A DNA stretch of 63,448 nucleotides, filler included, from Reclinomonas americana ATCC 50394 (Eukaryota): NCBI GenBank assembly GCA_048213135.1. It is 5 parts of 2 records of this genome, joined end to end, with 100 filler letters (N's around TTAATTAATTAA, not from the genome) between each part and the next. Parts side by side here need not be neighbours in the genome. Positions count along the whole stretch, not along the records: positions 1 to 8,085 come from PS015112.1; positions 8,186 to 19,966 come from PS015112.1; 3 more parts are not named here. One strand, given 5' to 3'. Below the pieces are notes generated by a model. That model searched no databases, was not told where the DNA came from, and saw only the letters and a program-made list of their open reading frames with translations. Positions 1,139 through 9,667 of this stretch are shown here, piece by piece (positions within the stretch are counted from its first letter, which is position 1; each line of letters starts with the position of its first letter). The position numbers and the translations under genes were made by a program.

Positions 1139-2215
1139 ATGGCCTCTGCCCCGCCCTCCCTCTGCCGCAAAACCCTGCATGGCCACACATCGGCCGTGTC
1201 ATCTGTCGCCATCACTCCCGACGGCGAGCTCATCGTGAGTGCGAGCATCGACAAGACTGTGCGTGTGTGGTCACTGGCAACTGGCGAGGACCTGTTGCAG
1301 TTGGAGGGGCACACTGCACGAGTCTCGTGTGTCGCTGTCACTCCCGACGGCCTGCATGCTGTCAGTGGGAGTGCACGTGCCGACAAGACAGTGCGCGTGT
1401 GGTCGTTGGCGAATGGGGAAGAAGAGCGGCGGCTGCAGGGACACACTAGCTGGGTAATGTCTGTCGCCGTGACTCCCGACGGCCAACACATTGTGAGTGG
1501 GAGTACGGACAACACTGTGCGCGTGTGGTCACTGGCGAGCGGGGAGGAAGTGACCCGCATGAGCGGGCACTTGGATTGGGTGCTCTCGGTTGCCATCACT
1601 GCTGATGGTCAGTTCATAGTGAGTGGCAGTGATGACGAGACTGTGCGAGTGTGGTCTCTGATGAGTGGCGAGGAGGTGCGACGGTTGGAGGGACACAAAA
1701 ACGGAGTGATGTCGGTGGCTGTCACTCCCAGCGGTGAGCACATTATCAGCGGGAGTTATGACTGCACGGTGCGAGTGTGGTCTGTGGCGAGTGGCGAGGA
1801 AGTACGGCGGCTTCAGGGGCACACTGGTGCTGTGTCTAGTGTCGCCGCCATGGCGGATGGTGAGCATATTGTGAGCGGTAGTCACGATAGGAGTGTGCGT
1901 GTGTGGTCGTTGGTGAGTGGAGAGGAAGTGCGGCGATTGGAAGGCCACACGGATTGGGTGCATTCAGTTGCTGTCACTCCCGATGGCCAGCGCATTGTCA
2001 GTGGAGGCGAAGACGAGACAGTGCGGGTGTGGACAACACCTCGTGGTCTCGCTCGACAGGAGCTCGACTGCGCGCGTTCGGCGATGCGGGCGGTGCAGGA
2101 AATCCTGGGAAAGGGCGAAGAGGATCCGCGGTGCCTGGTGGAGATTGTGCTGCGCTGTTTCTTGGTGGAGGATGCCGAGGTGCTGGTTTACCGATGTGAA
2201 GCGGAGGGACTGTGA
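1139..2215 (+). CDS. WD40-repeat protein copy 1 (7 repeats + helical C-terminal tail)
   Basis: ATG 1139 (MASAPPSLC). Seven GHxxxVxSVAVTPDGxxxVSGSxDxTVRVWSL repeats, then RGLARQELDCARSAMRAVQE...EDPRCLVEIVLRCFLVEDAE. Intronless. Confidence 0.93.
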   Translation: MASAPPSLCRKTLHGHTSAVSSVAITPDGELIVSASIDKTVRVWSLATGEDLLQLEGHTARVSCVAVTPDGLHAVSGSARADKTVRVWSLANGEEERRLQGHTSWVMSVAVTPDGQHIVSGSTDNTVRVWSLASGEEVTRMSGHLDWVLSVAITADGQFIVSGSDDETVRVWSLMSGEEVRRLEGHKNGVMSVAVTPSGEHIISGSYDCTVRVWSVASGEEVRRLQGHTGAVSSVAAMADGEHIVSGSHDRSVRVWSLVSGEEVRRLEGHTDWVHSVAVTPDGQRIVSGGEDETVRVWTTPRGLARQELDCARSAMRAVQEILGKGEEDPRCLVEIVLRCFLVEDAEVLVYRCEAEGL

Positions 2216-2250
2216 CGAGAGTCTTTGAAGTGTTACACTTGCCTTCTTCC

Positions 2251-2310
2251 GTGCTGCGCTGTTTTCTGGTCGAGAATGCAGAGGCCGTTGGGCATCGGAG
2301 TTGCACTGAC
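2251..2310 (+). pseudogene. Degenerate copy of the WD40-gene C-terminal tail in the 3' flank of copy 1
   Basis: gtgctgcgctgttttctggtcgagaatgcagaggcc... translates VLRCFLVENAEAVGHRSC, against VLRCFLVEDAEVLVYRC in the gene; lies after the stop codon. Confidence 0.7.
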
Positions 2311-2853
2311 AACTGACTTGGTGAACGAGTGAGACGACACCAGGGAGTGCGGTCCTTGTTCTCCTTTCGTCCTCTCTACCCTGCACTCTTCGCGTGGCAC
2401 GAGAAGAAGAATAACATTCCGCATTGTTCCTATGTTCCCGTACACTATTCTGCATACTACCACCGCTGTGCTTGGCATTTACGTCTTGTGGGCGAATCCA
2501 CTTGCCGTCATGTTTGCCGGGTTTCGACCAAACCCGGCAAACATGACAAAACTCCGATGTTGTGTGCAGGGAGTTGACGGCGACTGTGACGCGTTTGAGA
2601 GTACAAGCAGTACTTTCGGCTGCACATCACACGCAGTGTCCGCAATCACGTATGCGAATGCACCCGCTTATATCCACGGGGCCGCGCGGCCGTCGTCGGC
2701 CGGCGCCGGGACAGCCTGCTCATGTTTCACACTGTGCATATGCTGCCTCAGAAATCACTGAGTCCATATCTGGCACTCGCGGGTGTGCAAGCTGTCATCT
2801 GCCCGACGTGCCGTATTTCAACCTCAGCGAGATCGAATTTGACCAAACCACCC

Positions 2854-2859
2854 TATAAA
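2854..2859 (+). promoter_or_regulatory. Possible TATA box upstream of ORF 2961
   Basis: TATAAA in a GC-rich background about 100 nt before the ATG; position and sequence only. Confidence 0.25.
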
Positions 2860-2960
2860 GTGTCCCGTCGTCATGCGACAATCACACACCCATTCGCATT
2901 CACAGTGCGCGCGCACCACGTGCACATCCACAGACTTCTACGCCGCCTCCACCGATCGAC

Positions 2961-8074: not shown

Positions 8075-8129
8075 GTTGTGTGTGCNNNNNNNNNNNNNNN
8101 NNNNNNNNNNNNNNNNNNNNNNNNNNNNN

Positions 8130-8141
8130 TTAATTAATTAA
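8130..8141. other. Artificial gap linker TTAATTAATTAA (also at 20011-20022, 48379-48390, 54755-54766)
   Basis: Identical 12-mer with stops in all six frames, centred in N runs four times. Confidence 0.95.
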
Positions 8142-8185
8142 NNNNNNNNNNNNNNNNNNNNNNNNNNNNNNNNNNNNNNNNNNNN

Positions 8186-8384
8186 TGTGTGGTCCACGCC
8201 GCGCGGACTCGCTCGACAGGAGCTCGACTGCGCGCATTCGGCGATGCGGGCGGTGCAGGAAATCCTGGGAAACGGCGAAGAGGATCCCCGATGCTTGGTG
8301 GAGATTGTGATGCGCTGCTTCCTGGTGGAGGATGCCGAGGCACTGGTGTATCGTTGCTTTGCCGATGACTCCCTTGGGTGGTGA
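8186..8384 (+). CDS. WD40-repeat protein copy 5, C-terminal tail only (5' part in gap)
   Basis: VWSTPRGLARQELDCAHSAMRAVQEILGNGEEDPRCLVEIVMRCFLVEDAEALVYRCFADDSLGW*. Differs from the copy 4 tail, so it is a separate copy. Confidence 0.85.
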
Positions 8385-8581
8385 TGGTCGAGAAGCGAGG
8401 ATCTGCGTCTTCTATGGCCTTTACTCTCTTGATTCTCTACGTGCCATCCGCTGGCCCTCTGGTCTCGTGTAATCCACACAGTAAACTTGTAAAGAAGCCT
8501 CCAGCGACTCAATCCGTCCACGTCCGTCCTCTCAGCAAAGGACACGCATTCTCCGTCTCTCGCCACGCACACACACACACC

Positions 8582-9667
8582 ATGACCTCTGCTCCTCCCT
8601 CCCTCCCTCATAGAACCCTGCATGGCCACACATCAGCCGTGTCATCTGTCGCTGTCACCGCCGATGGCGAGTTCATCGTGAGTGGAAGTGGTGACAACAC
8701 GGTGCGTGTTTGGTCGCTGGCGAGTGGCAAGGAGATGCGACGCTTGGAGGGACACACTGGCAGTGTGCTTTGCGTTGCTGGGACTCCTGACGGGCAGCAT
8801 GCTGTAAGTGGCGGTACTGACAAGACTATACGTGTGTGGTCGTTGGCGAGTGCGGAAGAAGTGCGACGGTTGGAGGGTCACAATGGAAGTGTGTGGTCCG
8901 TCGCCGTCACTCCCGATGGACAGCACATTATCAGTGGTAGTGCTGACACCACTGTGTGCGTTTGGTCATTCGTGAGGGGAGAAGAAGTGAATCGTATGAG
9001 CGGGCACACAGATTTCGTCGTGAATGCTGTCACTGCCACTCTGGATGGTCAGCTCACTGTGAGCGGGAGTGATGACGAGACTGTGCGAGTGTGGTCAATA
9101 GCGAGAGGCGAGGAAGTGCGACGGTTGGAGGGCCACACCAATGCGGTGATGTCTGTCGCCGTCACTCCTGACGGTGGGCATGTTGTGAGTGGCAGTCATG
9201 ACAAGACAGTGCGAGTATGGTCGGTGGAGAGTGGAGACGAGGTGCGACGGTTGGAGGGTCACACTGGCATGGTGCTCTGTGTCGCCATCACCCCCGATGG
9301 CGAGCATGCCGTGAGTGGTAGCTGGGACAAGACAGTGCGAGTGTGGTCGTTGGTGAGTGGAGCGGAAGTGCAACGGTTGGTGGGACACACTGATGCGGTG
9401 TGCTCTGTCGCTGTCACCCCTGATGGTCAGCACATTGTGACGGGGGGTAACGACAAGACTGTGCGCGTGTGGTCCACGTCGAGCGGACTCGCTCGACAGG
9501 AGCTCGACTGCGCGCATTCGGCGATGCGGGCGGTGCAGGAAATGCTGGAAGAAGTGGGGGAAGAGGATCCTCGGTGCTTGGCGGAGATTGTGCTGCGCTG
9601 CTTCCTGGTGGAGGATGCCGAGGCGCAGGTTTATCGTTGCTTTGCCGATGGCTCCCTTGGGTGGTGA
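8582..9667 (+). CDS. WD40-repeat protein copy 6
   Basis: ATG 8582 (MTSAPPSLPH). Seven repeats plus tail ending DGSLGW. Confidence 0.93.
   Translation: MTSAPPSLPHRTLHGHTSAVSSVAVTADGEFIVSGSGDNTVRVWSLASGKEMRRLEGHTGSVLCVAGTPDGQHAVSGGTDKTIRVWSLASAEEVRRLEGHNGSVWSVAVTPDGQHIISGSADTTVCVWSFVRGEEVNRMSGHTDFVVNAVTATLDGQLTVSGSDDETVRVWSIARGEEVRRLEGHTNAVMSVAVTPDGGHVVSGSHDKTVRVWSVESGDEVRRLEGHTGMVLCVAITPDGEHAVSGSWDKTVRVWSLVSGAEVQRLVGHTDAVCSVAVTPDGQHIVTGGNDKTVRVWSTSSGLARQELDCAHSAMRAVQEMLEEVGEEDPRCLAEIVLRCFLVEDAEAQVYRCFADGSLGW

Follow-up and report, generated by a model that had tools for sequence, protein, structure and literature searches.

Our analysis of a 63,448-nt stretch of the genome of Reclinomonas americana ATCC 50394 (GenBank assembly GCA_048213135.1; hereafter the window, in whose numbering all positions are given) revealed, within its first ~10 kb, a tandem array of genes for WD40 repeat proteins (W1-W5), interleaved with genes of a second kind (X1 and X2; Table 1). 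With a probability of roughly 0.6, the W genes represent a tandem, lineage-restricted family of stand-alone seven-bladed WD40 adaptors, in which paralog-specific top faces are combined with a shared C-terminal tail. Each copy keeps a near-consensus, tetrad-stabilized scaffold under purifying selection; the residues of the top-face ring vary both among blades and among paralogs; and the family has a helical hairpin of its own at the C-terminus. The closest named relative is a protein derived from an expressed sequence tag (EST) of the jakobid Reclinomonas americana, and the host genome is intron-bearing and GC-rich.

The W proteins are ~358-361 residues long and, as proposed in the original prediction, contain exactly seven WD40 repeats in each of the five copies, 35 in total. 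Translation starts 13 residues upstream of the first Gly-His; the sequence context of the ATG codon, directly before blade 1, is conserved in all five. The repeats are exactly 42 residues long in 28 of 35 cases; the five N-terminal units have 44 residues, and lengths of 44, 41, and 43 residues were found in repeat 2 of W1, repeat 7 of W2, and repeat 4 of W5, respectively. The Pfam WD40 family (PF00400) matched each of the four copies scanned in seven stretches, scoring 263-273 bits (cut-off 27); these copies contained WD40-type families only, with no NACHT, NB-ARC, HET, or other effector domain. The Asp-His-Ser/Thr-Trp tetrad, as defined by Wu et al. (2012; PMC3419727), is complete in 32 of the 35 blades. 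A PADLOC match of W3 to the profile HEAT-ARM_XIII (E = 2e-34) covers the WD40 stretch alone of this 1972-position profile, and was set aside as generic WD40 likeness.

The structure of W3 was modeled with AlphaFold2 (AF2) from an alignment of 44 sequences: the five copies from the window, three relatives sharing the tail (see below), and 36 non-family WD40 sequences, the latter picked, mainly for higher identity, from the 120 matches listed. The model is a seven-bladed propeller with 28 strands (mean predicted local distance difference test score, pLDDT, 93.6; predicted template-modeling score 0.89; pLDDT ~98 in the propeller). The N-terminal strand completes the last blade, yielding a closed propeller of four-stranded blades, and two tail helices (pLDDT 70-87) follow it. 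In Foldseek the model aligned to 5YZV with a template-modeling (TM) score of 0.97 (normalized to the target) and a root-mean-square deviation (rmsd) of 1.1 A. The nearest solved structures are near-consensus bacterial or designed WD40 proteins (5YZV, 2YMU, WRAP-T), followed by WDR5 and LIS1.

For the analysis of variation, the repeats were brought into a frame of 42 columns by dropping the first two residues of each first repeat, two residues of repeat 2 in W1, and one residue of repeat 4 in W5, and by placing one gap in repeat 7 of W2. Column entropies are highest at columns 35 (3.55 bits), 17 (3.19), 19 (3.03), 16 (2.80), 37 (2.38), 12 (2.19), 3 (1.99), and 15 (1.96), and do not exceed 0.37 bits at G13, H14, V18, T24, G33, D36, T38, R40, V41, and W42. 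Six columns (15, 16, 17, 19, 35, and 37) have a mean of 2.82 bits, compared to 0.95 bits in the other 36 (permutation p = 1e-5). Hence the scaffold is indeed nearly fixed, and the variation is focused on the positions named in the original prediction, not evenly spread; all residue triplets and single residues listed there recur in the 35-repeat frame. Between paralogs, identity is 71-80% in the scaffold and 5-43% over the 21 hot-spot residues, and the 35 blades carry 31 distinct hot-spot combinations.

Within the fingerprint (V/L/I)-R1-R2-(V/L/I), the conserved Val falls at column 18, and the tetrad Asp is at column 36; therefore, columns 17, 19, and 35 correspond to R1-2, R1, and D-1, the top-face hot spots that ligand binding generally requires (Wu et al., 2012; PMC3419727). 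The secondary structure of the AF2 model agrees in placing strands a, b, and c at columns 18-23, 29-34, and 38-43, the d-a loop at columns 12-17, and the b-c turn at columns 35-37; the mapping relies on DSSP strings and the published WD40 topology, not on measured geometry. By topology, then, the variable positions lie on the top binding face, as had been suggested, in the case of columns 17, 19, and 35. The suggested match to positions under selection in HET-E holds for columns 17, 19, 35, and 37. According to Paoletti et al. (2007; PMC1805685), four HET-E/NWD codons are under strong positive selection and form two pairs, located in the d-a loop and the b-c turn, respectively, and each flanking a conserved consensus site; the four W columns sit on either side of the conserved Val and Asp in exactly the same way as codons 7, 9, 25, and 27 of HET-E.

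The residue make-up of columns 17, 19, and 35 is also unusual: Trp occupies 11 of 105 positions (expected 1.4-2.9%, p = 3e-4), Pro none of 105 (expected 4-9%, p = 1e-4), and Met and Asn are enriched as well. Such a composition argues for putative binding sites, not for unconstrained, drifting sites of a GC-rich gene.

The tail carries a conserved motif, R..CL.E..LRCF[LI].E[DE], whose fixed letters are invariant columns in the alignment of tails, and had no Pfam match at E <= 10 in the three tails scanned. Nucleotide identity among W3, W4, and W5 is 93-98% in this region. The ratio of nonsynonymous to synonymous rates (omega), computed on W3, W5, and a tail-only fragment of a sixth copy, is 0.3-0.6, indicating purifying selection. 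A HMMER search of 1.84 billion representative sequences gave four matches, three of them credible relatives. One is the EST-derived R. americana protein, 116 residues comprising the last blade, which is near-identical, and the tail; this record suggests that a member of the family is transcribed in a jakobid. The other two, of 381 and 394 residues, combine a much more divergent propeller, similar in length, with the same tail motif. The fourth match, a fungal NACHT-WD40 protein, aligned over the blade part only. Of 98 pattern matches in a metagenome scan with the tail alignment none was confirmed, a word-index search with the tail gave 27 candidates, none significant, and an atlas search yielded no usable match. 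Given the few relatives from HMMER and the lack of further ones in the metagenome scan, the W family appears to be rare and lineage-restricted. Complex prediction with two copies of residues 293-360 gave a score of 0.01 and no verdict on self-association of the tail, and no PTS1-like (peroxisomal targeting signal), BC-box-like, or F-box-like motif was seen in it by eye, in comparison with the consensus sequences.

The W paralogs are mosaic. W1 and W2 share 97-99% of nucleotides over codons 1-85, with no synonymous differences in blades 1 and 2, and ~70-78% thereafter, and W1 and W4 share 88-94% over codons 166-225. Accordingly, the best tree changes along the gene, joining W1 with W2 in blades 1-3 and W1 with W4 in blades 5-6. 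As these identity tracts and changing topologies show, gene conversion between the copies moves blade-sized cassettes, hot spots included, and homogenizes the tail; the first ~85 codons of W1 and W2 are a recent conversion tract.

Selection was analyzed at the codon level with models implemented in our own scripts, not in codeml or HyPhy. By the Nei-Gojobori method, the number of synonymous substitutions per site (dS) is 0.68 between positional orthologs (~0.7 between paralogs) and ~1.0 between blades, and the nonsynonymous-to-synonymous ratio (dN/dS) of the scaffold is 0.21-0.24; scaffold omega is 0.20-0.24 in every analysis. This combination of high dS and low scaffold dN/dS shows that the repeats are old and that purifying selection, not ongoing homogenization, maintains their similarity. 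On the 35-tip codon tree they group mostly by blade index. A two-partition GY94 model with scaled branch lengths gave omega of 0.20 (scaffold) and 1.00 (six variable columns); partial re-optimization changed these values to 0.22 and 1.29, respectively.

To allow for mosaicism, five-taxon trees were built blade by blade, with the best of 15 topologies taken for each. Under a common synonymous rate, columns 17, 19, and 35 have omega 2.54 on these trees (likelihood ratio test, LRT, 27.0, p = 2e-7); equal codon frequencies lower this to 2.19, and MG94 gives 1.91 (LRT 15.8-27.0 over the three models, p <= 7e-5). Their nonsynonymous rate is 2.1-2.75, compared to at most 0.85 in the next tier of columns (~0.7-0.85 for the nonsynonymous rate, beta, of column 37). 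Without any tree, the ratio of dN at columns 17, 19, and 35 to dS of the scaffold has an overall value of 1.6 and lies at 1.03-2.9 in all ten gene pairs, which are not independent of each other; for columns 15, 16, and 37 this ratio is 0.77, and their omega is ~0.4-0.8 across analyses. Taken together, the rate of evolution equals or exceeds the neutral one at columns 17, 19, and 35 and is slightly lower than neutral at columns 15, 16, and 37; this is suggestive, but no proof, of positive selection at the hot spots. Set against the result that, according to the original prediction, would refute it (dN/dS at or below 1), the pooled values of columns 17, 19, and 35 are higher when measured against the gene-wide dS (omega 1.9-2.5), and are not significantly above 1 when these columns are given a synonymous rate of their own (1.1-1.4).

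Several results weigh against reading these data as specificity rewritten on the top face. In per-column tests of the fixed effects likelihood (FEL) type, the nonsynonymous rate did not significantly exceed the synonymous rate of the same column at any position. With their own synonymous rate, columns 17, 19, and 35 have omega of 1.14-1.36, not significantly above 1 (1.14-1.23 on blade-wise trees; 1.36, p = 0.45, when pooled on the 35-repeat tree, where columns 15, 16, and 37 give 0.42), and the profile interval of that rate, ~1.0-4.0, translates into omega of ~0.57-2.5. Among the three closest blade pairs, with a proportion of synonymous differences (pS) below 0.2, none of six changes falls at a hot spot, so that there is no excess of hot-spot change. 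Gene conversion breaks the assumption of a single tree made by the selection models, and any single-tree test is therefore weakened. Gaps inside the array leave the copy number, the orientation of W4, and some junctions uncertain.

Moreover, the variability pattern is common to unrelated WD40 proteins and by itself says little about function. In a comparison set of 143 units from the 36 non-family proteins, bacterial or metagenomic (units of exactly 42 residues; other lengths were dropped), column entropies correlate with those of the W family with a Spearman coefficient of 0.87, the two sets share seven of their eight most variable columns, and the consensus is almost the same scaffold. As the same columns vary in unrelated proteins, the pattern belongs to the WD40 repeat class. 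This agrees with the description of highly repetitive WD40 proteins as conserved repeats with diverse hot-spot sites by Hu et al. (2017; PMC5587647). Mean repeat identity within a W gene is 0.56-0.62 by simple pairwise comparison, which is not the procedure of Hu et al.; taken at face value it does not reach their Highly-Repetitive cut-off (internal identity >= 0.7) and falls into the Moderately-Repetitive band (0.4-0.7). Top-face variation being a property of the whole repeat class, codon-level tests are needed before an immune-like reading is adopted for any such protein.

These observations bring up ordinary relaxed constraint, in which the hot spots would be the least constrained part of the blade surface, drifting neutrally in old, partly redundant paralogs. 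Such drift would account for the agreement with the 143 unrelated units and for omega of 1.0-1.3 at the six columns on the 35-repeat tree, 1.1-1.4 at columns 17, 19, and 35 with their own synonymous rate, and 0.4-0.8 at columns 15, 16, and 37, all at an old divergence (dS ~0.7-1.0). It is nevertheless unlikely, since the make-up of columns 17, 19, and 35, rich in Trp, Met, and Asn and devoid of Pro, is far from the neutral expectation, and their nonsynonymous rate stands well apart from the next tier and above the mean synonymous rate (p of 7e-5 or lower). Even less is to be said for draft-assembly artefacts of a collapsed tandem array as the source of the mosaics and of part of the diversity: despite the gaps, the inverted placement of W4 between two of them, and contigs of a public sequencing run that link distant places of the array (see below), we consider this very improbable, as there are five long intact open reading frames (ORFs) of equal length with scaffold omega 0.2, converted tracts still differ by 1-3% and so come from separate copies, and an independent contig reproduces part of W1 with a single difference.

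Somewhat less likely than drift is a repertoire of diversifying recognition proteins, for immunity or allorecognition, that would resemble HET-E/HNWD but lack the nucleotide-binding oligomerization (NOD) module, with positive selection on the top face, shuffling of cassettes, and X proteins as possible effectors. The HNWD/NWD proteins of Podospora anserina (HET-E, HET-D, and HET-R) resemble the W proteins in their 42-residue near-consensus repeats, in variation that flanks the strand-a Val and the b-c-turn Asp (PMC1805685), at the four positively selected codons, and in sequence exchange between family members; the tandem array with its conversion mosaics, the variety of hot-spot combinations, omega of 1.9-2.5 against the gene-wide dS, and a tree-free ratio of at least 1.03 in all ten gene pairs fit a repertoire of this kind as well, and the N-terminal part of X lies near nuclease clusters in a feature search that provides a lead only. 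However, HNWD proteins have HET/NACHT domains and a variable number of repeats that, in fungal NOD-like receptors (NLRs), are ~85% identical within a gene (PMC4986451), whereas W proteins have no such domains, 56-62% identity, and a fixed number of seven, and the context of their start codon, directly before blade 1, is conserved in all five copies. HNWD repeats undergo concerted evolution; in the W family patchy conversion between paralogs is clear, but the repeats group by blade index, and synonymous sites between blades are near saturation (dS ~1.0), which speaks against concerted evolution of repeats. Selection is significant in HNWD proteins (PMC1805685) and not significant in the W family in the FEL-type test, omega not being significantly above 1 once the local synonymous rate is allowed for. 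The helical C-terminal tail is a further feature of W proteins alone, and the nuclease lead for X found no support in Pfam, PADLOC, or sequences of the Protein Data Bank (PDB). As far as could be assessed here, the W family falls short of four of the five features that define HNWD proteins. The analogy with diversifying immune receptors drawn in the original prediction therefore stands in its structural part, the matching positions, and is not established in its evolutionary part, given a class-wide pattern, omega that exceeds 1 at columns 17, 19, and 35 alone and against the gene-wide synonymous rate alone, and the absence of HNWD features.

An immune or self/non-self role of the W family is possible. 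Its most elaborate version, a gene-converting array, in a free-living protist, of stand-alone WD40 sensors with diversifying top faces, a private helical signaling module, X proteins as possible effectors, and no NOD or STAND ATPase, is less probable again; if true, it would mean that a recognition repertoire of the HET-E kind has been built without a NOD/STAND ATPase.

F-box/WD40 and WD40/SOCS-box adaptors combine a variable WD40 propeller with a short constant docking module. The family of tailed adaptors favored here would follow the logic of these substrate receptors, having a variable propeller and a short module common to all paralogs; unlike their docking modules, the W tail fits neither a Pfam family at E <= 10 nor, by eye, the BC-box or F-box consensus. 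In the proposed scheme, the top face of each paralog would recognize a peptide or protein of its own, and the tail, by analogy with substrate-receptor adaptors, may couple all paralogs to one shared partner or place. New top faces would arise through amino acid replacements at the hot spots, whose rate equals or exceeds the neutral one, and also through patchy gene conversion of whole-blade cassettes. Should the paralogs turn out to have different ligands, they would provide a compact natural example of specificity rewritten on a fixed propeller scaffold, and the tail would represent a new docking or assembly module.

Moderately and highly repetitive WD40 proteins of prokaryotes and lower eukaryotes (PMC5587647) have the same scaffold, VAVTPDG...VSGS.D.TVRVW, as the W proteins. 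The latter are 53-60% identical to metagenomic WD40 proteins and 39-43% identical to 5YZV (Thermomonospora) and 2YMU, with an rmsd of ~1 A. The repetitive proteins described there are mostly long and multi-domain, often with multiple propellers, in contrast to a single propeller with a private tail in a eukaryotic tandem array; many of the metagenomic matches listed carry kinase, sigma-factor, TIR, caspase, or NACHT families in their precomputed Pfam annotation. Another set of WD40 proteins limited to few protist lineages, jakobids included, is Gcp1-Gcp3, Pex7-like proteins that co-occur with the mitochondrial type II secretion system (T2SS) in jakobids, heteroloboseans, and malawimonads (PMC8134430). 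A text search for the W tail motif in 10 of the 11 supplementary files of that paper gave no match. Among the papers listed in literature searches on tandem, hypervariable, or diversifying WD40 proteins, on Reclinomonas WD40 proteins, and on WD40 proteins in jakobid nuclear genomes, none was on such a family. Near-consensus WD40 repeats with variable hot spots have so far been seen mostly in bacterial multi-domain proteins and in fungal NLRs, where they serve self/non-self recognition. The W family is a minimal form, with the same repeat type and variable positions reduced to one propeller and a 62-residue tail, in a poorly sampled protist lineage.

Table 1. Genes and other features of the W/X array (positions in the 63,448-nt window).
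Feature	Position	Strand	Description
X1	1-1017	+	Cut by window start; tblastn 51% identity to X2; no Pfam family
W1	1139-2215	+	358 aa, seven WD40 repeats and helical tail; identified by ORF, start motif, Pfam WD40 (273 bits)
X2	2961-4256	+	431 aa, between W1 and W2
W2	4475-5551	+	Seven repeats; tail most divergent of the paralogs; first ~85 codons near-identical to W1
W3	5821-6903	+	Seven repeats and tail; reference for searches and for the AF2 model
W3 C-terminal tail	6709-6900	+	~62 aa, two helices (residues 299-324 and 329-358)
W4	7101-8074	-	Seven repeats; tail end lost in N gap 7081-7100; piece sits between two N gaps
Sixth-copy fragment (tail only)	8187-8381	+	tblastn 86% identity to W3 residues 295-360; alignment
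W5	8582-9667	+	Seven repeats and tail

The proteins encoded by the interleaved paralogs X1 and X2 combine a conserved N-terminal part with a (coiled) stretch rich in ERERQ and a C-terminus that is rich in Gly and Tyr and ends in GGGYY. No Pfam family was found in either, nor was there one for X among the weak matches listed at E <= 10. A language-model feature search placed the N-terminal part of X near clusters that carry HNH-type nuclease families (scores 0.88-0.93), a lead only that sequence searches did not support: there was no PADLOC family at E <= 1, and matches to PDB sequences were at chance level. The AF2 model of X, made from two sequences, is unusable (pLDDT 48). In the less likely reading as a recognition repertoire, X genes might encode effectors.

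Complete copies of the W gene are W1, W2, W3, and W5; together with W4, which lacks the end of the tail, and the tail-only fragment, the family has at least six members. The fragment starts directly after the N stretch 8086-8185, and its propeller part is attributed to this gap. The window contains 19 runs of N, four of them inside the array. Identical patterns of 44 N, 12 bases, and 44 N occur at 8086-8185, 19967-20066, 48335-48434, and 54711-54810, besides runs of 20 N and longer; the repeated patterns look like a regular product of assembly or masking. As W4 lies between two gaps, and the DNA 3' of W3 resembles the spacer 5' of W5, the minus orientation of W4 is suspected to be a scaffolding artefact of a true head-to-tail array.

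A search for sequencing runs listed one public run, sharing 5% of the words, and none of RNA. A 366-base contig from it matches W1 at 1604-1944 with one difference, at a synonymous position, and the same run gave short pieces of other W copies. Some of its contigs connect sites that lie far apart in the array (1552>6571 and 5325>1643); they represent either additional family members from other parts of the genome or chimeras.

CT-rich and CA-rich tracts are found upstream of each W start codon, and long low-complexity tracts of the (CT)n, (CCT)n, and (GAG)n type at 10440-11000, between the W array and the next gene. Neighboring genes carry short introns. One of them encodes an organelle-type prolyl-tRNA synthetase (11089-12081, plus strand), which is split by short introns; a stretch of ~66 bases, flanked by '...LYQIG' and 'KFRDE...', stays open in frame. 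The named proteins that match this enzyme best come from dictyostelids and oomycetes, with 69-75% identity over one exon. Further downstream, two ORFs on the minus strand (42771-43412 and 44847-45779), in which no Pfam family was detected at E <= 0.001, share a repeated motif of the kind TIAGAAG.SGSADGS.LTV.RFN, which we take to be reminiscent of the propeller repeats of NHL/YncE-type proteins.

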